Shown: positions 30,391-49,335 of the stretch, piece by piece
How positions within the stretch are numbered: the stretch's first letter is position 1
Layout of the letters: each line of letters begins with the position of its first letter
Assembly: GCA_041613315.1 (NCBI GenBank)
Contig: JBFJHJ010000017.1
Coordinates: 1-60,983 of the forward strand
DNA: 60,983 nt
Source: Gemmatimonadales bacterium
GTDB lineage: Bacteria > Gemmatimonadota > Gemmatimonadetes > Gemmatimonadales > GWC2-71-9
Reading direction: 5' to 3'
The notes under the pieces: generated by a model
Told to the model about the DNA's origin: nothing
The model's input: the letters and a program-made list of their open reading frames with translations, nothing else
Databases searched by the model: none
Translations under genes and position numbers: made by a program

Positions 30391-31253
30391 GCATAGCGGT
30401 TCCACTCATCCTCCGGGACGACCCACCCCGCGTCTAAGGCCTCGCGTCGGCCCCGGTCGCGGCGGCGGCGCCACCACCACAGCGCGGCCAACAGCACGCC
30501 CGCGATCCCCCAAAAGGCGCTGAAGGAGGTGAACACGAGGAGCCACCCGTAGCGCGTCCGCAGGTCCTTCTGCCACAGTGCCTCGAATTGCCCGAGCGTG
30601 ATCTGGTGCGTCGCGCGGAGCGCCAGATCGAAATCCCCGGTACCGCCGAGCGTCGTGATAATGGGCTCCAGACCGCGGTCTCGACCAAGCCGCTCCAGGA
30701 GCAGGACCGCGGTGGCGGCCAGCGCGTAGGCGGCTTCCGCCTGCACGGCGCCCCCGCGCCGCAAGTAGCCGTCCAGCTCACGCAGCGACGGCCGGGCGCC
30801 GCGGATCACGGCCCAGTTGACCCGCAACGCCTCGAGCCGAGTCCACTCCCCCGCCGCCCGGACGGCATAGCCTTCGTCGAACCAACGGGGCACGTGCTGG
30901 ACGGCGTCATGCAGCGCCAGGTGCGCCAGCTCGTGCCGCAGGGTCCGCCGCAGGTCGCCCGAGCGCCGCAGCACGATGGTGCGGGTGGCGGGGAAGGCGG
31001 CGCCCACCCCCCACTCCGGCAACCGTCCCGCGGTGAGGGAATCGAACCGGGCGGCGGTGGGCGCCAAGACGATCCGGATCGGCCGTGCGTCGGAGGTCCG
31101 AATGCCGGGCCACGGGCCTGCCGCATCGGCGAACTCCCCGAGAGCGGCGGCCAGGGTCGCATCCCCCGGCCAGTAGACCGCGGTGACGCGGCCGACCTGC
31201 ACGACGGCGGGGTCCTGCTGGACGGCGACGGCGACGAGGAGAAGCGCTAGCGT
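30387..31253 (-). CDS. Membrane-anchored zinc metallopeptidase (MA clan/gluzincin-like); start uncertain
   Basis: RHELAH plus PRWFDEGYA; hydrophobic N-terminus and a C-terminal TM followed by RRRR. The best SD-linked codon is ACG at 31253. Confidence 0.75.
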   Translation of the reverse strand, partial: TLALLLVAVAVQQDPAVVQVGRVTAVYWPGDATLAAALGEFADAAGPWPGIRTSDARPIRIVLAPTAARFDSLTAGRLPEWGVGAAFPATRTIVLRRSGDLRRTLRHELAHLALHDAVQHVPRWFDEGYAVRAAGEWTRLEALRVNWAVIRGARPSLRELDGYLRRGGAVQAEAAYALAATAVLLLERLGRDRGLEPIITTLGGTGDFDLALRATHQITLGQFEALWQKDLRTRYGWLLVFTSFSAFWGIAGVLLAALWWWRRRRDRGRREALDAGWVVPEDEWNRYA

Positions 31254-32107
31254 GGCGGCTCCTGCCCCTGAGCCGCACGCTCCAGCGCCTCCTGACAGCG
31301 CTTCCCCCAGGGATTGAACTTGTTTTGCCGGACGCCCCGCTCCCAGGTGCTCTTGGCCGCCTCCGGGTCGCCGCCGAACCACTGGGTTCGCCCCAACTCG
31401 TAGTACGCTTCGATCAGGTTGGGCCCGAGCTTCAGCGTCTTCTCGAAGAACGTCTGGGCATCTTCGTGCATCTCGCGCTCCAGGTACACCAGCCCGAGGT
31501 AGAAGTGCGCGTACAGGGTCGCCTTCTTGTCGTTGTCCAGCCGGATCGCTTTCGACAGGTGCTCGATGGCCTCGCCGAAGATCTGCTTCTTGAGACAGAT
31601 GTACCCGACGTTGATCCGGGCGAGCGAGTTCGCCGGCTCCTTCATCAGCACCTTCTGAAACGTGGCCAGCGCGTCGTCGTACTCCTCGTTCAGCATCTGC
31701 GCCCACCCCAGCAGCGATTCCGCCTGCACTTCTCCCGGCGACAGTTGCAGCGCTTTCGTGAGCGCCTGAATAGCGCCGGGGTAGTCGCCGAGCGAGATCA
31801 GGCTCCAGCCCTTCTCGATGAACGTCGACGCCCCAAGGTGATCGGCGTGCGGGATCGGCAGGCTCCCGGTGAACTGCGGGACCTGGTCGCCGCTGTCGTC
31901 CTGCACCAGCCGCTTGTACTTGTCAACCAGCTCCCGGATGCTCTCCTTGAGCGTGGTCAAGTCGCCGATGCCCTGATCCACACGCTTGAACAGGCCGATG
32001 ATGTCGCGTTTGACGTGCTCGCGCTGCTCCGGGGTGCGTGCGGTGCCGAGCCGGCGCGCAATATCGTCGTAGGCCGACCGGAGGGGCCCGATGAGGGATT
32101 CACTCAT
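31247..32107 (-). CDS. Coiled-coil + TPR protein
   Basis: N-terminal amphipathic helices followed by about 5 TPRs (GWSLISLGDY..A, LGWAQML, VGYICL, LGLVYL, LGRTQW). Confidence 0.85.
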   Translation of the reverse strand: MSESLIGPLRSAYDDIARRLGTARTPEQREHVKRDIIGLFKRVDQGIGDLTTLKESIRELVDKYKRLVQDDSGDQVPQFTGSLPIPHADHLGASTFIEKGWSLISLGDYPGAIQALTKALQLSPGEVQAESLLGWAQMLNEEYDDALATFQKVLMKEPANSLARINVGYICLKKQIFGEAIEHLSKAIRLDNDKKATLYAHFYLGLVYLEREMHEDAQTFFEKTLKLGPNLIEAYYELGRTQWFGGDPEAAKSTWERGVRQNKFNPWGKRCQEALERAAQGQEPPR

Positions 32108-32576
32108 CGGCCGCCTCCACCGTGAGCTGTTCCAACGCCAGCTTCTCCTTGCTCGAGAGCAGTTTGGCGGCGGAGAGGACGACGATCGTACGCGAGTTGA
32201 GGGTCACGATGCCGGTGATGTACTTCGCGGCGAGCCCGCGCACGATCGCGGGCGGCGGTGTGACCTGTTCGGCGGCCACCTTGAGCACCTCGAGCACCGC
32301 GTCGACGACCACGCCGATCTTGCCGTCCTCCCACTCCAGGATCACGATCCGCGTCTCGTCGTGGATCGGCGCGTCCAGACTCACGCGTTTGCGGAGGTCG
32401 ACCACCGGCACGACGGTATTGGCGAACGACACGACGCCTTCCAAGAAGTCCGGCGCCTTGGGAAGCGCCGCCGGTCGCTGGTAGCGGAGGATGCGCTCCA
32501 CCTGGAAGATATTGAAGGCGAAGTCCTGCCCGCCCAGGCGGAACGTCACGATCTGGACCTCGTCGCCGGCGCTCAT
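32100..32576 (-). CDS. cheW: Chemotaxis coupling protein CheW
   Basis: QIVTFRLG, VERIL, LPKAPDFLEGV, VVPVVDLRKR, IGVVVDAV. Confidence 0.92.
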   Translation of the reverse strand: MSAGDEVQIVTFRLGGQDFAFNIFQVERILRYQRPAALPKAPDFLEGVVSFANTVVPVVDLRKRVSLDAPIHDETRIVILEWEDGKIGVVVDAVLEVLKVAAEQVTPPPAIVRGLAAKYITGIVTLNSRTIVVLSAAKLLSSKEKLALEQLTVEAADE

Positions 32577-33001
32577 ACCCGCTCACCCACATCCGCGGCC
32601 ATCAGGCGTTCAGCCAGTGCCGCCATGTCCACGATTGGAATCAGTCCCTCCGGCGACCGCGCCACGCCCGACGCCCACGGCAGGCGCCACGCGCCGGGCG
32701 CCGGCTCCGGGGCCTGCCGCACCACGGCGTCCGCCCCGTCCACCTGGAACGCGACGGGCTTGCCGCCACACAGCGCCAGCACCACGGTGTCGCACGGCCG
32801 GGGCGACCGGTCGGTCAAGTGGAGGAGCTGTCCCAGATCGACGAGCGGCACGAGCTGGGTGCCGAGCCGCGTGACGCCCAGGACGGCCGGATGGGCGCCC
32901 GGCGCCGCCGCCACCTCGCCGCGGTCGGCGACTTGCCGCACGTCTTGCAGCCGCAGGCCCAAGCGTTCCTCGCCCACCCGAATCAAAAGATAGCCCTTCA
33001 C
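32573..33001 (-). CDS. cheW: CheW-domain protein (divergent)
   Basis: [31 protein letters not shown]. Confidence 0.8.
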
Positions 33002-34080
33002 CGATCCCCTCGCTCCATAAGGCGCGCCTCGATCTGCTCGGCGATCTGCGCCAGCGGCACCGCCGCGTCGACGGCGCCGGCCGCGACGGCCGCCCGGGGC
33101 ATGCCGTAAATCACCGATGATCCTTCGTCCTGCGCCAGGCCGCTCCCACCCGCCTGCCGGATGGCCTGCAATCCGTCCGCCCCGTCACGCCCCATGCCGG
33201 TCAGCACCACCCCGATGGCGCGGCGGCCGAACACCTCGGCCACCGACCGGAAGAGCGGATCGGCGGCAGGGCGCACACCCCAGACGGGCGGGTGTTGGTC
33301 GAGCCGCAGGCGGGGCCCGTCGCTCGCCGCGACCACGCGCATGTGATAGTCCCCCGGCGCCACGTACGCCGTATCCGTCAGAAACGGCGTATCGTCGTCG
33401 GCCTCGACCACGCGGAAGGCGCTCGCGCCGTCGAGCCGCTCCGCAAGGCTGCGGGTGAAGCGCGGCGGCATGTGTTGCACGATCAGCACCCCCGCCTCAC
33501 GCCCCGGGCTCAGGCGCGGCACGACTTCGGCGAGCGCCCGCGGCCCACCGGTACTGGCCGCGATCGCGATCGCAATGCGGGCCCGTCCGCGCACCACCCC
33601 GGTCGGCGGAGATGGCCGGGGGGGCACGGGGGCCGCCGCCAGCATCGGCACGCGGCTCCAATCGGCGGCAACCGCGGCCTCCAGCGCCGCCAACAGGGCC
33701 GGCGCGATCGTCAGCAGCCCATCGCGCGTGCCGTCGGCGGGCTTGGCCACGACTTCCACGGCTCCCAGCTCGAGCGCGCGGATCGCCGCCTCGGTGCCGG
33801 GGCCCGCGTACGCACTGACCACAACGATCGGCCGGGGTGTCTCGCTCATGATGTAGCCGATCGCGCTCAGGCCATCGAGCTGGGGCATCTCGATGTCCAT
33901 CGTGACGACGTCGGGATCGTACCGATGCACCTTCGCGACGGCGTCGAGTCCGTCCCGCGCCGTGCCCACGACGCGAAACCGGTCCGTCCGTCCGATGATG
34001 TCGCTCAGGACGCGCCGCAGCAGCGCGCTGTCATCCACCACCAGGACACTCGCGCGCCCGCTAGAGGACCTGGGCGTCAC
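32998..34080 (-). CDS. cheB: Chemotaxis methylesterase/response regulator CheB
   Basis: Receiver domain (VVDDS, TMDIEMP, AKP) plus catalytic ASTGGP, QHMP and GMGRDG. Confidence 0.96.
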
Positions 34081-34561
34081 TGCCCACCGAGCGTACCGTC
34101 ACGGTCCCCCGCGCGACGTCGAACCACACCGAGCGCCCGACCGTGCCGCCGACCACCTCCCCCACGACCGGGATGCCCGCCGTGCGGAGGCCCTCCCGAC
34201 ACGCCAACACGTTGCGCTCCCCGATGTGGGGACTGCCGGCCGGCAGCAGGTCGGCGAACATCGTGGCACCGCCGACGAGCCGGGCTTCGACGCGCGCGAG
34301 GTTGGCGCCCTCCGCCCGCATGGCGGCCAGTACGGCGGGGATCGCCGTATCCGCGCAGCGCGCCGGGTTGGACCGCCCGCGCGACAACGCCTGCGAGGGG
34401 AGCAGCACGTGGGCCAGCGCGCCAATGCCCTTCCCCGGATCGTACAGCAACACCGCGACACAACTCCCCAGACCGAGCGTGGCGAGCACGCCCGCGCCGT
34501 CCGCGACGATGAAGTCGCCCATATGGACGACGAGCTGCTGCGCGCTGCGGACGACTGTCAC
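34061..34561 (-). CDS. cheD: Chemoreceptor glutamine deamidase CheD
   Basis: [10 protein letters not shown] (Cys), AHVLLP (His), GGATMF, IGERN. Confidence 0.94.
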
Positions 34562-35373
34562 GGCCGGCGGTAGACGCGCTCACGCGCGTTGACGAGAGTG
34601 AACCGCCTCCGGACGTCGCCCAACAACGTCTCTACCTTGCCGAGCACCAGGAACCCGCCCGGCCGCAGCGCCTCGGCGAACCGTTCGTACAGACCTTCCT
34701 GCGTGGTTCGGTCGAAGTAGATGACGACGTTGCGACACATGATTAGGTCGTACGGCGCGAGGGGCGGCAGGTCACGGGTGAGGTCGTGCCGAACCAGGCG
34801 GACGAGCCCGCGCACCTCGGGGCACAGACGCCGCGGGCCCGCGCCCGTGGAGTAGCGTGCGACCAGGGACGCCGGCATGTCGTCAAACGCGCGCTCGGGA
34901 TACTGCGCGGCGTCCGCTCGGCCCAGGCTCGTCACGTCGTAGTCTGTTGCGTCGATCGTCGCCGGCGGCGGCGTCGGCGCGCCGTGGCGGCGCGCTTCCT
35001 CGAGCAGGAGGATGGCCAGGGTGTACGGCTCCTCTCCCGACGAGCAACCGGCGGACCAGCAGCGGGGGCGACCCTCGCGCTGCGACCACAGCTCGGGGAG
35101 CACCTGGTCGGCCAACAGGGCCCACGTTTCCGGGTTGCGGTAGAACTTCGTGACGTTGATGGTGAGGGCATCCAGGAGGCGCTCGTACTCGGCACCGTCG
35201 GCATCCAGCACGCGGGCGTATTGCTCATAGGTATGTACGCCGCGGGCGCGCATGCGCACCGCGATGCGGCGGCGCAGGCACCCGGGCTTGTAGGCATCGC
35301 ACGCGAAGCCCCGGTCGCGCGCGATCTTGCCCAGGAGCGCCGTAAAGCCGGGATCCGGCTCCGCCGAGCTCAC
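34558..35373 (-). CDS. cheR: Chemotaxis methyltransferase CheR
   Basis: LRRRIAVRM, LTINVTKFYRN, WSAGCSSGEEPY, CRNVVIYF. GTG start at 35373. Confidence 0.95.
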   Translation of the reverse strand: MSSAEPDPGFTALLGKIARDRGFACDAYKPGCLRRRIAVRMRARGVHTYEQYARVLDADGAEYERLLDALTINVTKFYRNPETWALLADQVLPELWSQREGRPRCWSAGCSSGEEPYTLAILLLEEARRHGAPTPPPATIDATDYDVTSLGRADAAQYPERAFDDMPASLVARYSTGAGPRRLCPEVRGLVRLVRHDLTRDLPPLAPYDLIMCRNVVIYFDRTTQEGLYERFAEALRPGGFLVLGKVETLLGDVRRRFTLVNARERVYRRP

Positions 35374-36989
35374 GCCAGGGCGCTCATCGTCTCGAGGTTG
35401 GTTCGGGCGAGCTCGTGGTGCGGGTTGAGCTCCAACGCCTTCTTCCACATCTCGGACGCATACTGCCGGTCCATCCGCTTGTAGGCGATGTTGCCGAGCT
35501 TGAAGTACACGTCGTCGCCCAATCGCGGCTGCAGCTTGATCGCCCGATGGTAGGCCTGCCACGCCTCGTCGTGGCGGCCGGCCCGATAGAGGATGTCGCC
35601 GAGGTTCTTCGACAGCTGCGGGAGCGACGGGTCGTCGGCCAACGCCGTGCGGAGGAGCTCCTCGGCCGGCTCCAGCTTGCCGAGCAACTCGAGCAGCACC
35701 GCCAGGGTGTTGCGGAGCACCGCGTGCTCGGCATGGTGCTCGAGTCCCTGGCGCACCACGGTCTCGGCTTCGTCGAACTGCTCGAGCCCCGCCGCCGCCA
35801 GCGACCGGGCCCAGTACCAGACCGCCGGCAACGGCCCGTCGCCGGCCACCTCCCGAGCCCGGTCGAGCCGGCCCACGGCGACCTCATAGTCGCCGCGCTG
35901 CAGCGCCGCGATCCCCCATCCGGTCAGCACCCGGTGGTCCCGGCGGGACATCGAGGCCGCCTCGGCGTAGGTGCTTTCGGCATCGTCCAGCCGGCCGGCC
36001 TTCTCGTAGGCCAAAGCCAGGTTGTGGAGCACCCCGCGGCGCGGTCCGCCGTGCTCCAGCGCCCCCTTGAACGCCTCCATGGCGTCGGCCCATCGCGCTT
36101 GCCGCAGCGCGAGCAGCCCGAGATAGAAGTGCGTGCTGCCGTCGGTGGGTCGCAGCTCGGACACGCGCCGGAACTCCCGCGTGGCCTCGTCCAGCATGCC
36201 CGTCTTGTAGAAGGCGATCCCTAAGTTGCGGTGCTCGTCCACCCGGGCGTCACCGACCTGCGCGAGGCGCGGCGCCTCGCTGCGGCCCGTGCGGTGGGCG
36301 AACCCGGCAGTGATGAGACCGTAGAGCGCCTTGCCCACCTCGAACTCCCCCAGCGCCGAGTCCTCGACGAGCCGCGCGACGTCTCGCGTCCCGTCGAGCA
36401 AGGCCAGGATGCGGTCCTGCTCGGGCGTGAGCGTGACCTGGGACGCCTCAACGCGCTCCCGGTCGGCCGTGAAGATGATGTCGAACGACGGGATCTTCTT
36501 CTCGATCAGGCTCCATTCGTCGACGCGGCGCGCCCCCTCCAGGAGCAGCGATTCCGGGTTAATGGACACCAGGAAGTCTTGCCGCTCGGGCCGCACCTCC
36601 GCCTCGAAGTTGAAGCTCCCCCGCGACCAGGTGAACAGGAAGTAGACCGCCTCTTCGATTTGCACGCGCATGTAGTGCTCGAGGTCGCGGCGCGAGACGG
36701 CCCCCTGCTCGACCAGGATCTCGCCGAGCCGCTTGTCGCGCTGGTGCCCCTGCTGCTCGATCCCGGCGTCGAGCTGCTGCTGCGTGATCTTGCCGTTCTT
36801 GGTGAGGATATCGCCCAGGCGGTCGCGCCGGTTCACGATCGATGCATAGGTGATGCGGCCACGATCGAAGTAGATGTAGCCGAGGTTGGTGCGGTCGGTG
36901 ATCGACAGGCATCCCGTCTTCTGCCCCAGGGCGAGGAGCTGCAGCACGTCGGGCAGCGACGCTTCCTTGAGACTCCCCTTGATGGCCAC
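35370..36989 (-). CDS. DUF4388 (PATAN-like) + MshEN-like + TPR protein
   Basis: IKGSLKEASLPDVLQLL..GQKTG.L, tandem RLGxIL motifs, LLLEGARRVDEW, a wHTH-like segment and about 8 TPRs. GTG start at 36989. Confidence 0.85.
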   Translation of the reverse strand: MAIKGSLKEASLPDVLQLLALGQKTGCLSITDRTNLGYIYFDRGRITYASIVNRRDRLGDILTKNGKITQQQLDAGIEQQGHQRDKRLGEILVEQGAVSRRDLEHYMRVQIEEAVYFLFTWSRGSFNFEAEVRPERQDFLVSINPESLLLEGARRVDEWSLIEKKIPSFDIIFTADRERVEASQVTLTPEQDRILALLDGTRDVARLVEDSALGEFEVGKALYGLITAGFAHRTGRSEAPRLAQVGDARVDEHRNLGIAFYKTGMLDEATREFRRVSELRPTDGSTHFYLGLLALRQARWADAMEAFKGALEHGGPRRGVLHNLALAYEKAGRLDDAESTYAEAASMSRRDHRVLTGWGIAALQRGDYEVAVGRLDRAREVAGDGPLPAVWYWARSLAAAGLEQFDEAETVVRQGLEHHAEHAVLRNTLAVLLELLGKLEPAEELLRTALADDPSLPQLSKNLGDILYRAGRHDEAWQAYHRAIKLQPRLGDDVYFKLGNIAYKRMDRQYASEMWKKALELNPHHELARTNLETMSALA

Positions 36990-38971
36990 TAGGTGAGCTC
37001 CTCGATCAGTCGTTCGGACGGATCGGGCCAGTACCACACCATCTTCTCGCGGCTCTGCACACCACCCGATGGCGACACCACGACGCCGCTGGTGCGCACG
37101 GCGGCGGGACGGCGGCGGGGCGGCGCCGCGCCCTCGATGAGCTCCCGCGCGAGGCCGGCGCTGGGAGCGACGCCCTGCGCATCGGCCCCACCCAGCACCC
37201 GCTGCACCAACCCGAGCAGCGCTCGCAGAGAGTCGGCCGGCCGCGCCGCGAGGTAGTCCGCCAGCTCCTCGTCCGCCGTCCCGAGACGTTCCTCCAACTT
37301 GCGCACGATGATCGCGCGGCGGAGATCGCGGTCCGGCGGCCCGATGGTCGCCACCAGGCCGCCCTCGAGACGGGAAACCAGGCGCTCATCGAGCCCCGGC
37401 ACATCGCGCGGCGGCAGCAGCGCCGTGAAGACGATCTGGCGGTTGGCGTCGGCCAGAAAGTTGAAAAGGTGGAACATTTCCTCCTGCGAGCGGTCCTTTC
37501 CCGCCAACAGGTGTACGTCGTCCAACAGGAACGCGGTGACATTACGGAACTGCGACCGCCAGCGGTCCACATGCTCCTCGTCGATCGCCCGGACCACCTC
37601 GTCCAGCAGCTGTTGCGCGGGCAGACACGCCACCCGCTGCCGGCGGCGCTCGGCGATCCCGTGGCCGATCGCGTGTAACAGGTGCGTTTTCCCCACCCCG
37701 GTCGGCCCCACCAGCACGAGCGGGTTGTATCGCTTCCCGGGCTGCTTGACCACCGCCCGAGCGGCGGTTAGCGCCACTTTGTTCGCGTCGCCGCCCACGA
37801 AGCCGTCGAACGACCACGCCGGCGACGGGCCGGGCGGCGGTGCCAGGCCGCGTTCGGCGGCTTCGACCAGATCCACCGCCTCATCCACCCGATCGGGATC
37901 GTGGAACACGGGATCGCTCGCGCGGTCGGGATCGATCCGTTCCATCGCCTGCTGCAGCCCACGGAGGCGCTCGATGTCCCGCTCGAACGCCTGGAGGACG
38001 TGCTCCGCCGAGGCGGGGACGTCTTGCTGAATGAGCTCCTCCAGCCGGGCGGTGCGGTACCCCTCGGCGTCCCACTTGAGGATCCCCTTGCCGAGGCGGG
38101 AGCGCCACACTTCCACCTGCTCCGTCACCGTGTGCGTGACGTCGGAGAGGAAGTCGGCAAACTCGTCGGTCGCCGCCTTGGCACGGGCCGGTGTCGAGCC
38201 GGCGCCCTTCCGGCGCGTGGGACGCGGTGTCGCGGGCGCCGCGCCCTCGGGCAGGTCCCCTTCAAGCAGCGCCTGGGCGGCGTCAGGCGCGAGCGGCGCC
38301 TCGCTGACCGCTTGAAACGCCACGAGGCGATTGAGCAGGCCCAGCAGCTCACGCACGTTCCCCAGCTCGAACCCCGCCGCCGTTTCGAGCACCCCGTCCA
38401 CGAACACCGAGCCCCGCTCCTCCGCCCGGCGCCGCAGGATCGCGAGCCGCGTCTCGTAGTCGGGAGCGCCGATGTCCACCACCAGCCCACCGTCAAACCG
38501 CGCAATGAGCCGCTCGTCGAGGTCGTTGAGCTCCGAGGGCGGTCGGTCGCTCGTGAGCACCACCTGCTTACCCTGGGATTGGAGGTGCGAGATCAGCCGC
38601 AACAGCTCCGCCTGGGTCTCCCGCCGATTCGTGAGGAACTGGACGTCGTCCACGAGCAGCACGTCGACACCCGCGAAGCGGTTACGGAACGCATCGCTCT
38701 GACCCGCCGCGACGGCCGTATGATACGCCTCGACGAACTCGTCGAGCGTGAGGTATTCGGCATGCAACCGGGGGGAGAGCTGCTTGGCCGTCTGGCCGAT
38801 GGCCATGAGCAGATGCGTCTTCCCGAGGCCCGTAGCGCTGTACACGAAGAGCGGGTTATAGGCCGTCCCCGGGGACTCGGCCACCGAGCGTGCCGCCGTC
38901 ACCGCGAGCTGGTTCGCGGAGCCGACGACGAAGCTGTCGAAGCTGAACCGCGGGTTCAACTCGACGGTCAT
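36989..38971 (-). CDS. Tandem DnaA/Hda-like AAA+ protein lacking DnaA domains I and IV
   Basis: Two DnaA domain-III copies: [31 protein letters not shown] and [33 protein letters not shown] 38971 overlaps the mglA stop. Confidence 0.88.
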
Positions 38972-39567
38972 TCGGGCGGGGCCTGGGAGAGCTTGCGCAA
39001 CACGAGCTCCGAGATCGCCTTGAGCGTCTCGAAGACGCCCTGCCCACGCAGCGCGTCGGCCGCGAAGCTGGGGGCGCTGCGGAAGTTCAAGGCCTCGTCC
39101 AGCTCCGGCGGGGTGAGCACGAGGTCCCCGGGCAGGTCCTGTTTGTTGTACTGCAGGACGAGCGGTACCTCGCGAACGTCCACCCCCTGCTCGAGAAAGT
39201 TGGCTTGGAGGTTCTGCAGGCTTTCGATGTTCTCGTCCAGCTGCCGCGCCTGGCTGTCGGCGACGAACACCACACCGTCGGCCCCCTGCAGCACCAGCTT
39301 TCGCGTGGCGTTGTAGTACACCTGCCCGGGCACGGTGTAGAGTTGGAACCGCGTCGTGAAGCCGGAGATACTGCCCAACTCCAGCGGCAGGAAATCGAAG
39401 AAGAGCGTGCGGTCGGTCTGCGTCGCGAGCGACACCATCCGCCCGCGCCGATCCTCCGGCACGCGGGCGTAGACGTACTGGAGATTGGTCGTCTTCCCCG
39501 AGCGTCCGGGCCCGTAATAGACGATCTTGCACGTGATCTCGCGGGTCGTGAAGTTGACCAGGGACAC
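38968..39567 (-). CDS. mglA: Ras-like small GTPase MglA
   Basis: [47 protein letters not shown]. Confidence 0.95.
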
Positions 39568-39570
39568 GAC

Positions 39571-40041
39571 TCACCCTCCGAAGAGCGCTGAGAGACTTTC
39601 GTTCAACTCGCGCTCGAAGTCCGCCGCCAGCACGGGTTTCTTCCGCTCGACCGGCGGGCACGCCGCATCGAGCTGGGCCGCGAGGTCCTCGAAAAACAGC
39701 TGTACCAGACCCATGGACGATTCCGTCCCGTACACGACCAACGCGAGGAGACGCCCGCGGGGCGTCGCGAACCCCGCCAAGAAAATGCCGTGCTCCACAC
39801 CCTGATGGTTGAGCGCGGTGAACTCGCGCGTCTCCATCAGTTTGGCCAGCTCCACGGTGGAAGCCATGATCGCCGCCCCCAGCGCCGCGGCCGACATCAC
39901 ATCCACCGCCCGGGTGAACCCGTGCTGCGCCAGCACCTGCCCCGCCGGCGTCATGAGGAGCGTCAGCCGCGCGCCGGTCTCGCCGATGAACCGCTCCAGC
40001 GGCTCCAGCGTCCAGGCCTCGACCGCCCGCGTCTTCTTCAC
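39571..40041 (-). CDS. mglB: Roadblock/LC7 protein, MglB-like
   Basis: AGQVLAQHG, AAALGAA..AS..ELAKL, HQG, GLVQL, C-terminal amphipathic helix; directly upstream of mglA. Confidence 0.8.
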   Translation of the reverse strand: MKKTRAVEAWTLEPLERFIGETGARLTLLMTPAGQVLAQHGFTRAVDVMSAAALGAAIMASTVELAKLMETREFTALNHQGVEHGIFLAGFATPRGRLLALVVYGTESSMGLVQLFFEDLAAQLDAACPPVERKKPVLAADFERELNESLSALFGG

Positions 40042-40388
40042 TCGAGCACCTCCGCCGCCCGAAGCATCTCCAACCGGACGAGCCCGACGTTGAGGTCCGC
40101 GTCCCCTACGGCGACGACGAGCACGCCGTCCGCCGCCGGCACGCTCAGCAGCGTGCCCCCTTCCCCCTGCAGGTGCAGGAAGTCCGGCATGCCGGCGCCG
40201 GCCGCCTCGGCAGCCTGCCGGAACCGCTTGACGAGGCTCGCCGCAAGCGCCGCCACGGCATTGCCGCGCACACCTTCCATCAGCGATTCCGCCACGACCA
40301 GCCCGTCCTCACCGGCGACGAGCATCGCCCCGCGCACTCCCCGCACGCGCGTGACGCGGTCGAGCACCTGACGATACTGTTCCGTCAT
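40038..40388 (-). CDS. Roadblock/LC7 protein (second paralog, MglB/MglC-like)
   Basis: GVRGAMLVAGEDGLVVAE, VAALAASL, NVGLVRLEM. ATG at 40388. Confidence 0.85.
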   Translation of the reverse strand: MTEQYRQVLDRVTRVRGVRGAMLVAGEDGLVVAESLMEGVRGNAVAALAASLVKRFRQAAEAAGAGMPDFLHLQGEGGTLLSVPAADGVLVVAVGDADLNVGLVRLEMLRAAEVLE

Positions 40389-41191
40389 CGCTCCTGGGCC
40401 TCCAACCACGCGCGCGCGATGTCGGCGGCCCGGTCGGCGATGCGCGTGAGGCGGCCGGCCGGCACGCTGCGGTCCTTCAGCAGGAGGAGTAACGCGTCAT
40501 TCTTGGGCTGCGTCACGTAGAGGTTCGCGCTCGGGCCCTCCGCGACGAGCCACCGCCAGGCCCCGAGCCCCAGGAGCCGCGCCGTCCGCTCCGCCTCTTG
40601 CGCCGCCCCCGCCAGGTACGCGGCGACCGCGGCCGCGACGTCGCGCCCGTCCGCCGCCCGAAGCCCACCTCCCAGAATGCGCCCCCGGTCGTCGACGAGG
40701 AGCAGTCCGTGGTCCGCCCCCTCCAGTCCCTCGAACACGGCGGCGGGATTGGGCGCGGGCGGCTCGGGCACCGGCGCCAGTTCGGCTTCGTCGATCGTGC
40801 CCCGCACCGTTCGCAGCGCCTGCACGACGCTCCGGTCGGCCGGGTCGGCCGACAAGGCCATCTCGAGATGCTCCAGGGCGCGCTCCAGGTCGCCCGCTCG
40901 GTAGCACACGAACCCCAGCCCCTTGCGGGCGCCGGCGTGTCGCGGCTCCTGCGCCACCACCTCGGCCCATAGCTCCGCCGCGCGCTCGGGCTCGTCCATG
41001 TCCACCAGGATGCGCGCGTAGAGATCCTTCCCGTCCACGAGATCGGGGTGCCGCTCCAGGCCGCCGAGCGCCACCTTGGCGGCCGCCTCGAGCTGGCCGG
41101 CTCGACGCAGCGCCTCGCCGAGGGCCGAGAACACGAGGCTGTCCGGCTCGCTCGCCAGCTGAGCGCTCATCTGCCGGATCTCGTCAGACAC
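40385..41191 (-). CDS. TPR + C-terminal roadblock-like domain protein
   Basis: Three TPR-like repeats, a Pro-rich linker, then GLLLVDDRGRIL...AAYLAG.AQEAERTARLLGLG.W..LVAEG. Confidence 0.72.
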   Translation of the reverse strand: MSDEIRQMSAQLASEPDSLVFSALGEALRRAGQLEAAAKVALGGLERHPDLVDGKDLYARILVDMDEPERAAELWAEVVAQEPRHAGARKGLGFVCYRAGDLERALEHLEMALSADPADRSVVQALRTVRGTIDEAELAPVPEPPAPNPAAVFEGLEGADHGLLLVDDRGRILGGGLRAADGRDVAAAVAAYLAGAAQEAERTARLLGLGAWRWLVAEGPSANLYVTQPKNDALLLLLKDRSVPAGRLTRIADRAADIARAWLEAQER

Positions 41192-42335
41192 GGTTCCGCC
41201 TCAGCAGGGCATCCAGGGTCTGGGCCGCCTCGGTCGCGCGGCGGACGTGATCGGCGACGGCGGCATCGTCGCTCCGCTCACCGATCTTGAGCCAGCGCTG
41301 CCACCACTCGACCGCCTCCTGGAAGCGCCCCTGCAACGCCAACGCGTCCCCTAAGAGTCGATGCCCGGACACGAGCATCGGGTCCACGCGCAGGGCGCGG
41401 CGCAAGTGCTCCTCCGCCTCCGTCGGCCGCATCGCCGCCAACTCCACCTCCGCCAAGATGAGGTAGATGGACGCCTCGTGGGGCTGCACGGCGCGGGCCG
41501 ACTCGGCCCACCCCCTGGCGCCATCCAGGTCTCCGTGCTCCAGGGCCTGCGCCGCGCGCTCAATCAAGCGGTCGACCTCCCCCTCGGCCTGCCCCGTCGG
41601 CGCCGGCTGGGTGCCGCGATCTTGGACGGCCACGACGCCCGCGGTGGCCAAGCCGAAGATGGTCTTCGCCACCTCGAACTCCGATCGGCCCAGGGACGAG
41701 GAGATGCCGCGCACGTCGCGCTCGCCGTCGACCGCCGCCAGCACTTCCCACTCCGTTGGTAGCAGGTCCAGCTCGCCCGCTTCACCGCCCTCCGCCGGGG
41801 CGAGCGTCGGGATGACGCCGAGGTGCGGAATCTGGCTTTCGATGCGCGACCACTCGTCGATGCGCCGGGCGCCTTCCATCAGCAACGCTTCCGTCGGAAT
41901 GCGCACGTCGGCGTCGGCGGCGATGTCGGGGAGGGGACCCTCGACGAACGAAAAGTAACCCTCCCGCCAACTCATCACCTCGAACACGACTTCCTCGATC
42001 TGCGCGCGCACCTGACGCTCGAGCTCCCTTGCGTTGATGGCGCCAATGTCCACCAGGAGCTCGCCCAGACGGCGGCCGTCGCCCTGTCGCTGCATGTCGC
42101 GCGCGCGGTTGAGATCTCCCTCGGTGATCTTCCCCGATCGGACCAGCAATCCCCCGAGCGGATGGGGATTGCTGAGAATCTCGGCGTACACGAGGGCGCC
42201 GCCGTCGTAGTAGATCGTGCCCTGGTTGTGGCGAAGCTTGGACGTCACCGTCAGCACGCCGGTCTTGCGACTGAGGTCCAGCAGCTGGAAGACATCGTGG
42301 ATGCCCAGCTCTTTGAGGGGGCCCTCGATCGCCAT
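41184..42335 (-). CDS. DUF4388 + MshEN-like + TPR protein (paralog)
   Basis: IEGPLKELGIHDVFQLL..SRKTGVL, PLGGLL/RLGELL repeats, LLMEGARRIDEW, three TPRs. Confidence 0.85.
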   Translation of the reverse strand: MAIEGPLKELGIHDVFQLLDLSRKTGVLTVTSKLRHNQGTIYYDGGALVYAEILSNPHPLGGLLVRSGKITEGDLNRARDMQRQGDGRRLGELLVDIGAINARELERQVRAQIEEVVFEVMSWREGYFSFVEGPLPDIAADADVRIPTEALLMEGARRIDEWSRIESQIPHLGVIPTLAPAEGGEAGELDLLPTEWEVLAAVDGERDVRGISSSLGRSEFEVAKTIFGLATAGVVAVQDRGTQPAPTGQAEGEVDRLIERAAQALEHGDLDGARGWAESARAVQPHEASIYLILAEVELAAMRPTEAEEHLRRALRVDPMLVSGHRLLGDALALQGRFQEAVEWWQRWLKIGERSDDAAVADHVRRATEAAQTLDALLRRNRV

Positions 42336-42338
42336 GGC

Positions 42339-45026
42339 CTAGGCGGCCTCGGTCTGAAAGATCCGCTGCAGGTCGACGGCGGTGCGAGCGTGCTTGCGGG
42401 CGCGCTGCGCGAACGGGCCGCTGGGATCCAGCGCGATGACGCGCTCCCACCGCTCCACCGCTTCCGGATAGCGTTTGAGCCGGGCCAGCACCACGCCGGT
42501 GAAGAAGAGCGCACCCACGTGCCGATCATCGTAGGCCAGGATCTGCTCGAACGCCTCGAGCGCTTGCTCGGGCCGCTCGTCGTCGAGCAGCGCGTGTCCC
42601 AAGGCAAGGAGTGCGGCGAGGTCGGAGGGGTCGGTCGCGAGCACCTCCACCAGGAGGTTGACCGCCTTGCGCGCGCCGCCGGTCTTGCGGTACACGCTGG
42701 CCAGCGCCACGGCCGCATCGGAAAATGTCGGCAGCAGGTCCAGGGCCGCTGCATACGCCGCCGCGGCCGCCTCCCAGTCCTCGCGCTTCTCGTGCAGCTT
42801 GCCGAGGTCCACGTACACCTGGACGAATCGCGGGTCGAGCTCGAGTGCCTCGTCGTAGGCTTGGCGCGCCGATTCGAGGTCGCCGAGCCCCACGGTGATA
42901 TCGCCTTGGAGCTTCAGGATGTCCGGGCGTTGTGGCGCACGCTTGCGCGCGTCTTTGAGGGAGGCGAGCGCGGCCGCCGGGTCGCCGGCGGCGAGCTCGG
43001 TCTCCGCGAGGGCCAGGAGGACGGTCACGTCGTCGGGACAGTCGGCGGCGAGCGCCAGGGCGAGCGGCCGTGCTTCCGGCCCCCGCCGGAGCGCGAGGAG
43101 CGCACGAATCTCGCCGAGCCGCGCGTCGGGCCGGTCCGGGGCGAGCTGTTGCGCGGCGCGGAAGCGCTCGAGCGCCTCGCCGTGGAGGCCGCGCCGCGCG
43201 AAGACCGTGCCGAGGAGCGTGTGCGTCTCCACCAGGTCGGCCCCGCGGCCCAGCGCCCGATTCGTCTCCGCTGCCGCCAACTCGAGGAGCCCTTTGGTGA
43301 GGTAGTCGCGCGCCAACGCCAGCGCGTCGCCGGCGTCGCGCGAGGGTCGTTTCTGCGCCGGCTCCGCCAGCTCGGAGAAGAGGTCGTCCAGGAGGCTCTG
43401 ATCAAAGATCAGGCTCTGCGCGGTCAGGTCCGTGGTCACGTCGGCGGAGATCTCGGGCACGACCGCGATCGTGGATTCCTCGTACTGAAGGTCGATGGCG
43501 AGCCGGAACTTCTGGGGGACGTAATACGGATCCAGCGCCTGCGCGCGCGTCACCGCCCGGAGTGCGCCGTCGTAATCCCCGAGCCGCGAGAGCGCGAAGC
43601 TCAGGTTGTAATGGGCCTCGGCCGAGTCGGGGTCGCTTTCCACCGCCCGCGCGAACGCGTTGCGGGCATCTTCGGCGCGGCCGATCTCGGTGAGCACGAG
43701 CCCAATCCCGTTCCACGCCGGGCCAGAGTGCGCCTCCTGCTCCAGGACTTGGCGGAATACCTGCATCGAGAGCTGGAACCGCCGGAGCTTGAAGAGCAGC
43801 AGCCCGAGATTGAGCCGAGGGATGACCAGCCCGGGTTCCGCGTGGACGGCATCGCGTAGCGTTTCGACCGCTTCCTCGTGTTGCCCCACTTGCGCCAACG
43901 AGATTGCCAAGTTGTTCAGCGCGAGTGCGTACCGCGGGTCGATCTCCGCCGAGCGCCGGTAGGAGGCGATCGCCTCATCGAACTGGCCCAGCTGGTGGAA
44001 CACGACGGCGCGCTCGTTCCACAGTTTGGGCGAGTCCGCCACTTCAGCGACGAGGCCCTCGTACAGCTCCAAGGCGGCGACGTGGTCGCGCTTGAGGAGG
44101 TGCACCTCCGCCATCGCCTGGAGCACGAGGCGCCGATCCTCGCCGCGCTCGAGCGCCAGGCGATACTCGCGCAGCGCCTCGCCGTAGTAGCCCTGCTGGC
44201 GGAACGCCAGCCCGAGGTTGTAGTGCGCCAGCGCGCTTTGCTCCGCCACGCCGGGCTCGAGGGCGCGCTGCTCGGCCAAGCTCGGCCGAGCCCGCGCCCC
44301 GGACAGCCGGTCCAGCGAGAGGTTGGTCTGCGCCCGGGCGAACGTGGGATTGAGCTGGATCGCCCGCTTCGTCGCGGCCCGGGCCTCCTCGTGGCGGCCC
44401 ACGTCGCCCAGCGCGAACGCAATGAGATAATGGGCGTCTGCGTTCTCCGGATTGAGCTCGGTGGCACGGGTGAGCGCCTCCAACGCCTCGCTGTTCAGCC
44501 CGCGGTTGTAGAGCACCTCGCCGCGGTACAGTGCGACGACGCTGCTGTCGGGATCCAGCTCGGCCGCGCGGTCGAGCCACTCGGTGGCGACCTCGAGCCG
44601 GCCCCGGTTCTTCTCGGCCAACCCGAGCTGGATCAGCGCCGCCACGTCCCGGGCGTTGCGGCTGATCAGCGCCTGGAATTCCTCCACCGCCGGCTCGTAC
44701 TGCCCCAGCGAGGCGTACGCGCGCCCCAGCTCCCACCGCGCCTCCCGGTCATCGGGCTGCGCCCGCAGACGCTCGCGCAACTCGGCGATGCGCCGGTCGT
44801 AGTAGCCGGTCTCTTGGTAGGCGATCTCGAGGTTGCGCTGGGCGACCTGCATCTTCGAGTCGAGCTCCAGCGCACGCTTGAACTCGGCGATCGCCTCCTC
44901 GATCAAGCCTTTCTTGTAATAGAGAACGCCGAGGTTGTTGTGGGCGCCCGCATCCGACGGGTCGATTCGCTGCGCGAAGGACCGAAGGGTATCGCGATCC
45001 TTCTTGGAGATGCCCTGCGGTGGCAT
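42339..45026 (-). CDS. Large cytoplasmic TPR-repeat scaffold protein
   Basis: About 20 TPR-like repeats (AHNNLGVLY, AHYNLG, AWNGIG...); no signal peptide. Confidence 0.88.
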   Translation of the reverse strand: MPPQGISKKDRDTLRSFAQRIDPSDAGAHNNLGVLYYKKGLIEEAIAEFKRALELDSKMQVAQRNLEIAYQETGYYDRRIAELRERLRAQPDDREARWELGRAYASLGQYEPAVEEFQALISRNARDVAALIQLGLAEKNRGRLEVATEWLDRAAELDPDSSVVALYRGEVLYNRGLNSEALEALTRATELNPENADAHYLIAFALGDVGRHEEARAATKRAIQLNPTFARAQTNLSLDRLSGARARPSLAEQRALEPGVAEQSALAHYNLGLAFRQQGYYGEALREYRLALERGEDRRLVLQAMAEVHLLKRDHVAALELYEGLVAEVADSPKLWNERAVVFHQLGQFDEAIASYRRSAEIDPRYALALNNLAISLAQVGQHEEAVETLRDAVHAEPGLVIPRLNLGLLLFKLRRFQLSMQVFRQVLEQEAHSGPAWNGIGLVLTEIGRAEDARNAFARAVESDPDSAEAHYNLSFALSRLGDYDGALRAVTRAQALDPYYVPQKFRLAIDLQYEESTIAVVPEISADVTTDLTAQSLIFDQSLLDDLFSELAEPAQKRPSRDAGDALALARDYLTKGLLELAAAETNRALGRGADLVETHTLLGTVFARRGLHGEALERFRAAQQLAPDRPDARLGEIRALLALRRGPEARPLALALAADCPDDVTVLLALAETELAAGDPAAALASLKDARKRAPQRPDILKLQGDITVGLGDLESARQAYDEALELDPRFVQVYVDLGKLHEKREDWEAAAAAYAAALDLLPTFSDAAVALASVYRKTGGARKAVNLLVEVLATDPSDLAALLALGHALLDDERPEQALEAFEQILAYDDRHVGALFFTGVVLARLKRYPEAVERWERVIALDPSGPFAQRARKHARTAVDLQRIFQTEAA

Positions 45027-45030
45027 GCGG

Positions 45031-45651
45031 TCACGCGAGACGGATGGCGTCGAAAATCGCCTTGAGCGACGCCAGGTCGGGAAGCAGTAGGAAATGGCCC
45101 CGCAGCGCGTGGCCGGCCTCCTCGAACTGGAAGTCGGTCTCCACGCACAGCACGTAGTCGCGGTCCCGGCCGAAGTTGAGGTAGGCCGTCGTGACGACGG
45201 CCGCGGAAAGGTCGATCACCAAGCTCGGCACCGACGGGAGCAGCATCATTCCCATGAAATCCGACAGGGCGTTCATGTAGGCCCCACCCAGAATATTGCC
45301 CGCCTCCTTGAGGGCCGATTGCTCGAGTTCGTGGAACGAACCCGTGGTCGCCGGCGGTCGGCGCAGCAGCAGGTCGCACAACAGCCGGGCGGCGGGCTCG
45401 TCCATGACGAACAACGTGCGGCCGGTCAAATCGCCCAGCATATGCATCAGCACGGCCGCCACCACCTCCTCCGGATCCCCCAACAGCTCGTCTACGTCCT
45501 CCAGCGGGGTGATTGTGATCTGCGGCACACTGATCATGATGCGGCGGTTGGTGAGCTGCGAGAGGGCCGTGGCGGCGTGGCCCGCGCCGATGTTGGCCAC
45601 CTCGCGAAGCGCGTCCACCTGCAACGCCTTGAGCTCGCGCACGTCGTCCAT
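45031..45651 (-). CDS. cheC: CheY-P phosphatase CheC
   Basis: Two E-x2-N active sites: DALREVANIGAGHAATALS and SALKEAGNIL; PSVP. Confidence 0.95.
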   Translation of the reverse strand: MDDVRELKALQVDALREVANIGAGHAATALSQLTNRRIMISVPQITITPLEDVDELLGDPEEVVAAVLMHMLGDLTGRTLFVMDEPAARLLCDLLLRRPPATTGSFHELEQSALKEAGNILGGAYMNALSDFMGMMLLPSVPSLVIDLSAAVVTTAYLNFGRDRDYVLCVETDFQFEEAGHALRGHFLLLPDLASLKAIFDAIRLA

Positions 45652-45663
45652 GCCGCAGTCTCC

Positions 45664-47532: not shown

Positions 47533-47535
47533 GCG

Positions 47536-47898
47536 CTAGCCGAGCACCCGCTGCACCGCCTCGAGCACGCGGGACGGCTGGAACGGCTTGACGACGAAGT
47601 CCTTGGCGCCGGCCTGGATCGCCTCGACGACCAGCGCCTGCTGGCCCATCGCGCTGCACATGAGAACCCGTGCCTCGGCATCGAACTTCACAATCTCGCG
47701 CACGGCGTCGATCCCGCCCATGTCGGGCATCACAATGTCCATGGTGACGAGATCCGGCTTCAGCTGCTTGTACTTCTCCACGGCCTGCACCCCGGTCTCG
47801 GCTTCGCCCACCACCTCGAACCCCGCCTGGGTCAGGATGTCACTGATCATGGTGCGCATGAAGATCGCGTCGTCGCAGACGAGCACCGTGTGGCTCAC
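47536..47898 (-). CDS. cheY: Chemotaxis response regulator CheY (Bacillus/Thermotoga type)
   Basis: DDAIFMR, TMDIVMP, CSAMGQQ, FVVKPF. Confidence 0.95.
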   Translation of the reverse strand: MSHTVLVCDDAIFMRTMISDILTQAGFEVVGEAETGVQAVEKYKQLKPDLVTMDIVMPDMGGIDAVREIVKFDAEARVLMCSAMGQQALVVEAIQAGAKDFVVKPFQPSRVLEAVQRVLG

Positions 47899-47906
47899 AC
47901 GTCCCC

Positions 47907-48341: not shown

Positions 48342-48342
48342 C

Positions 48343-49335
<993 letters not shown>

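Follow-up and report, generated by a model that had tools for sequence, protein, structure and literature searches.

The gene at positions 36989 to 38971 on the reverse strand of the window (the whole 60,983-nt stretch of Gemmatimonadales DNA that was analysed) encodes a 660-aa protein built around two copies of DnaA domain III. Judged from its sequence it is not a replication initiator; at a probability of about 0.55 it is an adaptor, in which two short motifs would dock on a PATAN-TPR protein and the DnaA modules would serve as an optional ATP-gated switch, with type IV pili as the probable target. Across Gemmatimonadota the gene is conserved within a cluster of che, mglAB and PATAN/MshEN/TPR genes, and the following features of protein and cluster are needed below:

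31247..35370, reverse strand: cheR, cheD, cheB, two cheW and a TPR gene
35370..36989, reverse strand: downstream PATAN-TPR partner gene (DUF4388/PATAN, MshE-type c-di-GMP motif, TPR array)
36989..38971, reverse strand: tandem DnaA-domain-III protein gene (P0001; 660 aa; ORF 38971->36989)
36992..37051, reverse strand: C-terminal tail motif EKxxWxWP...RxIEE (aa 641-660; low confidence in the monomer model)
37133..37819, reverse strand: module 2, DnaA IIIa+IIIb (aa 385-613; degenerate sensor I and N-linker, but arginine-finger face retained)
37847..38107, reverse strand: helical repeat unit of ~90 aa in single copy (aa 289-375; WxxEGY ... DP)
38108..38167, reverse strand: motif 1, amphipathic helix EFxxFLxD (aa 269-288; retained in the mini-proteins)
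38171..38260, reverse strand: flexible, unconserved segment (aa 238-267; pLDDT below 50 at 239-267; conservation 0.12)
38261..38959, reverse strand: module 1, complete DnaA IIIa+IIIb (aa 5-237; nucleotide site invariant)
38968..39567, reverse strand: mglA, small GTPase (M. xanthus MglA, E 1e-75)
39571..41191, reverse strand: mglB, a second roadblock gene and a TPR-roadblock gene
41184..45026, reverse strand: second DUF4388/PATAN-TPR gene and a gene for an 895-aa TPR protein
45031..48386, reverse strand: cheW, cheY, cheA and cheC

An earlier note on this DNA had described two DnaA domain IIIs without domains I and IV, and a Pfam search bears this out, as Bac_DnaA matches two stretches of the 660-aa protein (E 5e-103) and neither Bac_DnaA_C (PF08299) nor DnaA_N (PF11638) matches it. 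The protein begins directly at domain III, leaving no domain I; in the predicted monomer, which leaves the packing of the modules unfixed (pTM 0.53), module 2 is followed by coil and a single short helix and not by a domain IV. The canonical dnaA, which the note had expected elsewhere, was found on another contig (C33) with dnaN behind it; it is the sole Bac_DnaA_C match in the genome (83% complete), where Bac_DnaA has three matches only. No DnaA box occurs within the window, and neither dnaA nor dnaN is near the tandem gene. The missing domains, the dnaA-dnaN pair on its own contig and the separate clades described below agree with the note that the protein is not the initiator. A misassembly was considered and rejected: one contig of run X1, which may be the source sample, covers 37027-40500 with zero differing letters, and many relatives give full-length, stop-free matches. 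The start of the gene overlaps the stop of mglA (ATGA), as claimed, and its stop overlaps the start of the DUF4388 gene downstream by 1 nt, an arrangement found in 78 of 96 relatives (these 96 sequences are the closest relatives, from Gemmatimonadales, and not the whole family). Full-text literature searches, in whose coverage subscription papers are mostly not included, returned no publication on this tandem DnaA-like family.

Both copies contain the Walker A Lys (K51 and K428), the Walker B DD (108-109 and 484-485), the box VII Arg (R158 and R534) and the sensor II Arg (R207 and R583), all as noted before. Copy 1 has the sensor I Asp (D142), whereas copy 2 has Leu in its place (L518), so that the AAA+ set is complete in module 1 and lacks sensor I in module 2; the loss reported earlier holds for this protein but is not family-wide, as 27 of the 96 relatives keep the Asp. 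We take the essential residues of B. subtilis DnaA to fall on two faces, a split that follows our own understanding of a figure legend. On the nucleotide face, K51, D108, D109, D142, R207 and the equivalent of G317 are invariant in module 1 (96/96), while in module 2 the equivalents of R264 and L269 and the arginine finger R534 are found in 96/96 and those of R202 and R206 in 95/96, but the sensor I Asp in 27/96 and the equivalent of F218 in 25/96 only. By this measure module 1 keeps the nucleotide face and module 2 the arginine-finger face, and the interfaces are complementary, which together with the invariant nucleotide site fits the earlier proposal of a repurposed ATPase switch. The finger face of module 2 would complete the ATP site of module 1, giving one composite ATPase site, either within one chain (in cis) or across neighbouring molecules in the manner of a DnaA filament. 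This one-site model may be too neat, because the finger of module 1 (91/96) and the Walker A Lys and first Walker B Asp of module 2 (invariant in the 96) are conserved as well. The residues scored are those given as essential in the available part of PMC6669920, which together with PMC10721633 (also in part) names E183, N187, I190, K222 and R202 as the residues for single-stranded DNA and the DnaA-trio. In this numbering module 1 carries swaps at three reading positions (I190 to His, N187 to Glu, H231 to Arg); module 2 retains I190, K222 and R202, with Asp at the N187 position, and among the 96 relatives the I190 type (I/V) occurs in 92 and the K222 type (K) in 88. A pure signalling scaffold would need no ssDNA residues, yet module 2 retains these two types.

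The region between the complete domain IIIs comprises about 147 aa (238-384), not about 190 as the note had it, and although it does lie between the modules as a linker would, it also includes motif 1, which is conserved, and a repeat unit that is folded. This repeat is present in 4-22 copies in other proteins, some of them with a DnaA domain, and the combination of motif 1, repeat and tail is found behind an unrelated N-terminal domain in a protein that has no DnaA module (L173, P0209). The repeat has no match in Pfam or among PDB sequences, aa 262-385 have none in the Atlas, and neither the tail nor the mini-protein described below gives a significant match in PDB, Pfam or NCBIfam. Fold kinship of the repeat unit was rejected, the best Z in VIA-align being 6.6 (EzrA), followed by 6.3 and 5.8, values that do not indicate kinship between helical bundles. 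In the multi-repeat proteins the N-terminal domain aligns with PATAN in a plausible register at an hhalign E of 0.11, and Pfam gives this likeness no support.

The gene following the tandem gene encodes a protein matching NF053729 with 47.7 bits (cut-off 38). Among 80 hand-picked genomes searched for the repeat unit, 30 are carriers and 50, several of them closed, gave no match; in all 30 carriers a full PATAN-TPR orthologue lies within ~2.5 kb of the repeat-unit gene, and in 74 of 80 loci the PATAN-TPR gene comes after the DnaA-like gene, the remaining 6 loci stopping inside the gene. The most constant neighbour is this downstream gene and not mglA, which is missing from the locus in all 8 carriers of family f7. 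The coupling to mglA described in the earlier note is seen here in the overlap; mglA as an obligate partner was rejected on its absence from these 8 carriers and from 4 of 16 loci with mini-proteins. With the MglA GTPase and its cognate roadblock protein MglB, the cluster contains a polarity module; it has three roadblock domains, and the tail might bind roadblock proteins instead of PATAN-TPR. No MCP gene is found in the che-mglAB cluster, and six are located on other contigs. The cluster is flanked by divIVA-ileS-lspA-rluD and by the rsmH...ftsZ cluster. As to output, PATAN domains bind PilB1/PilC in Synechocystis (bioRxiv 10.1101/2021.06.11.447907, in the part available), and PilB/PilT-type ATPases are present in this genome; PilM occurs in 30/30 carriers but is not discriminating because it is nearly universal in the sample (75/80). 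A general flagellar role was rejected, since FlhA is found in 8/30 carriers only; it was not found in this genome (83% complete).

The relatives form a series leading from two intact modules via a decayed module 2 and a single module to a mini-protein of 60-75 aa that consists of motif 1 and the Trp tail and still abuts the PATAN-TPR gene, sometimes in loci devoid of mglA. Several families have a decayed module 2 or none, the mini-protein lineages have lost both modules while the rest of the cluster stays, and the C-terminal Trp tail is retained in all reduced forms. A single short ORF with both motifs occupies the position of the tandem gene in 16 of 201 genomes of family f2 (14 of the 16 were read directly); third-codon changes dominate in 7 of 7 pairs of these ORFs, and in a database search with the mini-protein the best 120 matches are 70-93 aa long and contain both motifs throughout. 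In a tree of the partner protein the mini-proteins nest among carriers of the full-length gene and are therefore reductions. The MshEN segment is also lost from 13 of 15 of their partners, and at the 4 of 16 mini loci from which mglA is gone, mini-protein and partner remain together. Shrinkage to two short docking motifs in some relatives speaks for a signalling adaptor and against a protein of replication.

In a careful tree modules 1 and 2 form clades of their own, separate from Gemmatimonadota DnaA, in line with what the note had proposed to check for each half; the tree comprised 69 rows after 12 long or truncated and 19 near-redundant ones were left out. A quick tree of all 100 rows groups the two modules against DnaA (SH-aLRT 80), a sisterhood that the careful tree does not resolve. 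In deep tandem relatives both sites are intact. A fusion of MshEN with two DnaA domains occurs in four other proteins; these lack the repeat and form their own clade, so that they support the adaptor reading by analogy and not as orthologues. Metagenome scans for the context of deep tandem and repeat-plus-DnaA proteins yielded either nothing or, for the most part, canonical dnaA (domain IV in 71 of 80), and an Atlas link of the repeat-plus-DnaA proteins to a Thermoplasmatota cluster (score 0.88) serves as a lead only.

A rather unlikely alternative builds on a possible likeness of the tail to RomR-C: tail and motif 1 would self-associate into a polar scaffold, bind roadblock proteins of the MglB/MglC type and position MglA, as RomR does in Myxococcus, with the DnaA modules standing in for the receiver domain of RomR as input. 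The tail has invariant E642 and K643 and, in 76 of 96 relatives, W646 at the published spacing of RomR-C, plus W648 and P649; the tail profile has no second carrier in the genome, hence no other RomR-C-like tail, and the three roadblock domains of the cluster would offer partners. According to the accessible parts of the respective papers, RomR-C, a C-terminal helix rich in Glu in which Trp and Pro are invariant, suffices for polar targeting (PMC3441718) and binds the roadblock protein MglC via E390, K391, W394 and E402 (PMC12719032). However, the putative likeness is drawn from published residue numbers, the searches of PDB, Pfam and NCBIfam with tail and mini-protein matched no RomR, the mini-proteins lack the first tail Trp and often the EK pair, and at three mini loci (G071, G073, G183), where the mini-protein lies between cheC and the PATAN gene, the fetched region contains no roadblock gene.

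The earlier note's alternative is a pseudo-dimer capping or modulating DnaA filaments and thereby coupling polarity signalling to initiation; it is widened here to a protein that might join the filaments or inactivate ATP-DnaA independently of the clamp. Such direct modulation of DnaA is improbable, and less likely than the adaptor. The finger face and ssDNA-type residues of module 2 and the nucleotide face of module 1 could both pair with DnaA, no separate Hda-like gene was found in the genome (83% complete), the cluster sits between divIVA-ileS-lspA-rluD and the rsmH...ftsZ cluster, and HdaB, a DnaA-related protein that has no initiator function and can act on initiation, sets a precedent (PMC7049699, in part). 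Yet the modules are only ~40% identical to the genome's DnaA and fall into separate clades, module 2 or both modules are lost where the cluster persists, 50 of the 80 genomes searched gave no repeat unit, and dnaA, dnaN and DnaA boxes are missing from the surroundings. The N-terminal beta-clamp binding pattern matches none of the 96 family members and does find the motif of E. coli Hda as a positive control; in this the note was right. A double-ring AAA+ remodeller of the p97/NSF kind, which would use ATP to disassemble MglA-TPR or chemoreceptor complexes recruited by the tail, is very unlikely. Each chain does have two AAA+ modules, with two intact sites in deep relatives, and Foldseek ranks p97/Cdc48/Rix7 behind DnaA entries; with 14-16% identity and an rmsd of 15-18 A, however, these matches show no more than the presence of two AAA+ folds, and the cluster persists where one or both modules are lost. 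Initiator-clade modules form open helical filaments and have no pore loops.

The preferred reading is that of a signalling adaptor within the chemosensory/MglAB polarity module. It is made from an old pair of domain III copies, each a lineage apart from Gemmatimonadota DnaA. Motif 1 and the Trp tail would be its working core, docking on the downstream PATAN-MshEN-TPR protein; nucleotide-gated assembly of the optional DnaA modules would cluster the docking motifs, held out by the rigid helical spacer, and in this way concentrate the PATAN/c-di-GMP/MglA complex, with type IV pili as the most likely site. More tentatively, the filament-forming domain III of DnaA may have been recruited several times, in different lineages, to polymerise signalling scaffolds under ATP control as a general module: in Gemmatimonadota, in the MshEN-fused proteins and in the repeat and DUF835 proteins, which are probably archaeal. 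In Gemmatimonadota it would multimerise a portable two-motif docking peptide that organises the c-di-GMP/PATAN/MglA complex at the pole, the mini-proteins being the constitutive, ATP-free form of the adaptor; co-assembly with DnaA might even let replication state gate polarity. The known settings of initiator-clade AAA+ domains are replication and transposition (DnaA, Hda, DnaC, IstB); a conserved DnaA-derived protein in a polarity/chemosensory cluster would add signalling to these, and in an abundant phylum. The assignment also corrects a common mis-annotation as "DnaA", which the summed TIGR00362 score (483 bits, above cut-off) may explain for database entries of relatives. Since nature has pared a double ATPase of 660 aa down in steps to a peptide of 60-75 aa, the residues that count can be named from the series, and the mini-proteins are ready minimal constructs with which partner and ATP role can be tested on small purified proteins.

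Compared with DnaA, the modules have the same fold (8BV3, rmsd 1.6 A over 233 columns in Foldseek; further comparators are 8BTG of B. subtilis, 2Z4R of T. maritima and 1L8Q, 3R8F and 2HCB of A. aeolicus), share Walker A/B, box VII and sensor II with it and are 41% and 39% identical to the genome's own DnaA. The tandem protein differs in having two modules without domain I or IV, in the missing trio-reading residues of module 1, in its added motif, repeat and tail, in its signalling cluster and in its patchy, reducible distribution. Hda/HdaA and HdaB (RIDA) are likewise DnaA-related AAA+ proteins with an intact arginine finger and no domain IV; the tandem protein, by contrast, is duplicated, has an intact Walker A, is ~20% identical to E. 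coli Hda and scores 179 bits with TIGR03420 (two stretches summed), below the cut-off of 194.8. From p97/NSF type II proteins, whose classical-clade AAA modules form stacked hexamers, it is set apart by modules of the initiator clade and by the high rmsd of the p97 superpositions. The Thermoplasmatota proteins joining a DnaA domain to DUF835 (inactive KaiC-like; a signalling output domain according to the available part of PMC5847659) also have domain III without domain IV, and the multi-repeat proteins (one DnaA domain, zinc ribbons) share the ~90-aa repeat; both differ in a single near-canonical DnaA domain, their own clade (99/99) and 5-8 detected repeats. With the MglA/MglB/MglC/RomR system of Myxococcus xanthus and the MglA-TPR(Bd2492)-CdgA c-di-GMP hub of Bdellovibrio (PMC3983030, in part) the cluster has in common MglA (E 1e-75), MglB and roadblock genes, TPR proteins and a c-di-GMP motif, all alongside a chemosensory system; PATAN genes near mglA were noted before (PMC4316618, in part). 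The che set, which includes CheC and CheD but has no MCP gene beside it, differs from that of both comparators, for whose systems no DnaA-derived component is described in what was read ("DnaA" has 0 mentions in the available part of PMC4316618). RomR has a receiver domain, for which the 660-aa protein gives no Response_reg match; here the RomR-C-like tail is carried on AAA+ modules or stands alone.

A minus-strand gene (38971 to 36989) encodes P0001, a product of 660 aa. Pfam places two Bac_DnaA matches in it and detects no DnaA_N or Bac_DnaA_C domain, in keeping with the earlier note, which had read it as two DnaA domain IIIs without a DNA-binding domain; every motif named there is present.

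38971 to 36989, minus strand: gene for P0001
aa 5-237: module 1 (DnaA domain III)
aa 269-288: motif 1
aa 289-375: repeat unit
aa 385-613: module 2 (DnaA domain III)
aa 641-660: Trp-rich tail
35370..36989, minus strand: downstream partner gene (DUF4388/PATAN, MshEN, TPR)

In the AlphaFold model (mean pLDDT 88.9, pTM 0.53) both domain IIIs are complete and a helical segment is folded at 270-375; residues 239-267 and 625-643 are disordered, and the tail has low confidence. The top Foldseek match is B. subtilis DnaA domain III (rmsd 1.6 Å over 233 columns). The stretch between the modules, described earlier as an acidic/helical linker of ~190 aa, measures about 147 aa and holds motif 1 and a folded helical repeat unit. 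The source genome (83% complete) contains three Bac_DnaA matches, two in the P0001 gene and one in a complete dnaA on another contig (C33), the canonical copy that the earlier note had proposed to look for elsewhere in the genome; dnaN comes next, and the sole domain IV match of the genome lies there. Further, an IQ-TREE phylogeny built from 69 domains, after 31 rows out of 100 were omitted as long, truncated or redundant, united all module-1 rows (98/97) and all module-2 rows (100/96), both apart from Gemmatimonadota DnaA (89/86), a group of repeat-plus-DnaA proteins (99/99) and MshEN fusions, the base of the tree being poorly supported. Each half, as the earlier note had proposed to examine, is thus a clade of its own; the tandem is therefore old and, since P0001 also falls outside DnaA by its membership tests, the view that it is not the replication initiator is supported. 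When all 100 rows were used in a quick tree, the single-module forms clustered with module 1 (two with long branches); they are most simply losses of module 2.

For B. subtilis DnaA, PMC6669920 lists I190 and K222 as required for ssDNA, and R202, R206, F218, H231, R264, L269, G317 and R321 for the filament interface; E183, N187, R202 and E228 read trio bases, according to PMC10721633. By our reading of a figure legend in PMC6669920, R202, R206, H231, R264 and L269 are assigned to the arginine-finger face and F218, G317 and R321 to the nucleotide face. Among 96 full-length Gemmatimonadales sequences (B. subtilis numbering), the nucleotide residues of module 1 are invariant, as is its counterpart of G317; F218 is present there in 85 and R321 in 91, with I190 replaced by His (88/96), N187 by Glu (82/96) and H231 by Arg (94/96), and R206 not conserved. 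In module 2, R264 and L269 are invariant (96/96) and R202 and R206 nearly so (95/96); F218 is found in 25/96, G317 in 64/96 and the sensor I Asp in 27/96, so that its loss from copy 2, claimed from P0001, holds for this protein and not as a family trait. Because the arginine-finger face is kept in module 2 and the nucleotide face in module 1, module 2 would seem made to activate module 1; such one-way activation is, however, at odds with the finger of module 1 (kept in 91/96), with the Walker A Lys of module 2 (96/96) and with the mostly intact ssDNA-type residues of module 2.

Relatives form a reduction series. Deep relatives (P0233-P0237, P0239, P0240, P0254, P0257, P0259; taxon mostly not on record) have two mostly intact modules and share motif 1 and the repeat, with a related tail; in Gemmatimonadales, sensor I of module 2 is largely lost; at four loci of other families (L122-L125) module 2 lacks lid and Walker A, and at four more (L126, L134, L171, L172) it is missing. 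Two more Gemmatimonadota families have a single divergent module and a Trp/Glu tail ahead of a TPR-only gene. Finally, 16 of the 201 genomes of family f2, a tally including genomes flagged unpublished, carry at the P0001 position one short ORF consisting of motif 1 and the tail, nothing more; nine of the 16 built the detection profile. Genomes flagged unpublished enter just this tally and that of 121/125 below, and single-genome claims concern published genomes only.

L162-L170, L266, L267, L270-L274 (family f2): mini-protein loci replacing the 660-aa gene, annotated hypothetical where named

The 14 mini-protein ORFs read directly are 60-75 aa long, counted from the probable start where one was assigned, and are flanked by the PATAN gene on one side and by mglA (in some, mglB or cheC) on the other. 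They behave as genes, because third-position differences are the commonest class in all seven pairs compared and the best 120 of 1,020 database matches (70-93 aa) hold both motifs; many of the remaining matches may be long-form fragments. In a FastTree of the partner protein, mini-protein lineages make up one or two groups nested among Gemmatimonadaceae that have the full-length gene, and are therefore derived. MshEN is missing from 13 of 15 of their partners and mglA from 4 of 16 loci, with an mglA paralogue elsewhere in the three genomes checked of these four. Genome G049 encodes motif 1, repeat and tail once more (L173:4363-6363), here preceded by an unrelated N-terminal domain, whose relative P0209 has a weak Fe_hyd_lg_C match, and with no DnaA module; the divergently oriented gene beside it is presumably Crp/Fnr-like. 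Taken together, these forms show motif 1 and the tail to be the indispensable part and the AAA+ modules to be an exchangeable input.

A search of 1.84 billion representatives with a profile built on aa 266-384 gave 478 matches. Of the top 150, 24 contain 4-22 matched stretches each; a single Bac_DnaA domain is also present in five of these (accompanied by zinc ribbons in four), DUF835 in two and a weak match of KaiC type in two. Further repeat-plus-DnaA proteins were found beyond these five.

P0081, P0085, P0108, P0156, P0199, P0227, P0232, P0241-P0253, P0256, P0263: several repeats, one near-canonical DnaA domain III, mostly zinc ribbons
P0228-P0231: about 1,880 aa; MshEN, DnaA domain III, long helical region, second DnaA domain III; separate clade

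The DnaA domain of P0227 is 63% identical to Priestia DnaA. DUF835, the zinc ribbons and an Atlas neighbour cluster (Bac_DnaA 100%, DUF835 99%, Thermoplasmatota; at a score of 0.88 no more than a lead) suggest that the repeat-plus-DnaA proteins are probably of archaeal origin. A taxon is on record for just two related proteins, from Ca. Wallbacteria; P0131 and P0188/P0226 of that group, 2,300-3,100 aa long, are mostly this repeat. The unit is predicted as a helical bundle (pLDDT 86.8), structure comparison gave no convincing match, and the simplest role would be a rigid spacer. The four MshEN fusions lack it. A metagenome gene (L214:1-1767) joins a DnaA domain III without domain IV to a Cys-rich knuckle and an unassigned C-terminal domain; two receiver-like genes come next.

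Going by record titles, relatives of P0001 belong to Gemmatimonadota, and by the author's reading of the match table, genomes flagged unpublished included, 121 of 125 other genomes of the same family have a match with E no higher than 2.4e-79, far below the roughly 1e-50 to 1e-63 of canonical DnaA. Of 213 loci, the best 80 were compared: mglA is the immediate upstream neighbour in 79 (the remaining contig begins at the gene), and the PATAN-TPR gene the immediate downstream neighbour in 74 (the other six contigs stop inside the gene). The downstream gene encodes an MshE-type c-di-GMP motif that scores above its curated cut-off. The gene order is mostly cheW-cheY-cheA-cheC-TPR-PATAN-TPR/roadblock-roadblock-mglB-mglA-[gene]-PATAN-cheR-cheD-cheB-cheW. 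Stop and PATAN-TPR start overlap by one base in 78/96 relatives. In 80 genomes hand-picked, not at random, for carriers and non-carriers, the repeat unit was detected in 30, and in every one of them a full PATAN-TPR orthologue lies no more than about 2.5 kb away; that orthologue occurs in 32, the two extra cases being one gene at a contig edge and one genome with a mini-protein. As all 30 carriers keep it nearby and all eight carriers of family f7 have their sole mglA away from the locus, the constant neighbour is the PATAN-TPR gene, not mglA; the earlier coupling to mglA does not hold for f7 or for the four mini-protein loci without mglA. In some lineages the adjacent mglA is strongly diverged (43-48% identity; G036:C20:38836-39399, L273, L274); unlike it, a second mglA elsewhere in G036 is conserved. 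In one genome (G220, L133/L143) the family gene is interrupted at sensor I of module 1 by an in-frame stop, either a broken gene or a sequencing error. Positions 31247-48386 of the window hold a complete che set including CheC, CheD and three CheW genes. Chemoreceptor genes are absent from this set, and six MCP genes of the genome are found elsewhere, on other contigs. The signalling cluster is flanked by divIVA-ileS-lspA-rluD and an rsmH ... ftsZ cell-wall/division cluster (window 12910-28204, 48343-54753), whose end genes were checked by Pfam; the labels of the genes between them are tentative.

We favour, at a probability of about 0.55, an adaptor in which motif 1 and the tail, on genomic grounds, would dock on the PATAN-MshEN-TPR protein, the DnaA modules would add ATP-dependent clustering, and the output would likely be type IV pili. 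PilM was detected in 30/30 carriers and FlhA in 8/30, although PilM, present in 75/80 of the hand-picked set, is not confined to carriers; the source genome has PilB/PilT-type ATPases, and FlhA was not found in it (83% complete). PATAN domains of Synechocystis bind PilB1 and PilC (bioRxiv 10.1101/2021.06.11.447907), PATAN genes close to mglA are already known (PMC4316618), and Bdellovibrio has an MglA-TPR-c-di-GMP hub (PMC3983030). The main alternative, held at a low probability, is a scaffold like RomR-C that would bind roadblock proteins. In its favour, E642, K643 and W646 of P0001 are spaced like the published RomR contacts E390, K391 and W394 (PMC12719032, PMC3441718), a likeness of spacing that may or may not reflect homology. 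Placed below it, and rather improbable, is direct action on DnaA, for which HdaB (PMC7049699) is a precedent; the interface faces are intact and the genome, 83% complete, has no separate Hda-like gene, but some lineages lose both modules and keep the cluster, the clamp motif is absent from all 96 family members scanned and DnaA boxes from the window. Of the earlier choice between a repurposed ATPase switch and a DnaA-modulating pseudo-dimer, the switch fits the invariant nucleotide site of module 1 and the complementary faces of the two modules; the pseudo-dimer is weakly supported, as the cluster persists in lineages that have lost both modules. The literature searched gave no description of the family, and P0001 is taken to be an undescribed DnaA-derived component of a polarity/chemosensory module; by the membership tests of each, it falls outside DnaA (domains I and IV absent), Hda (clamp motif absent) and RomR (receiver domain absent).
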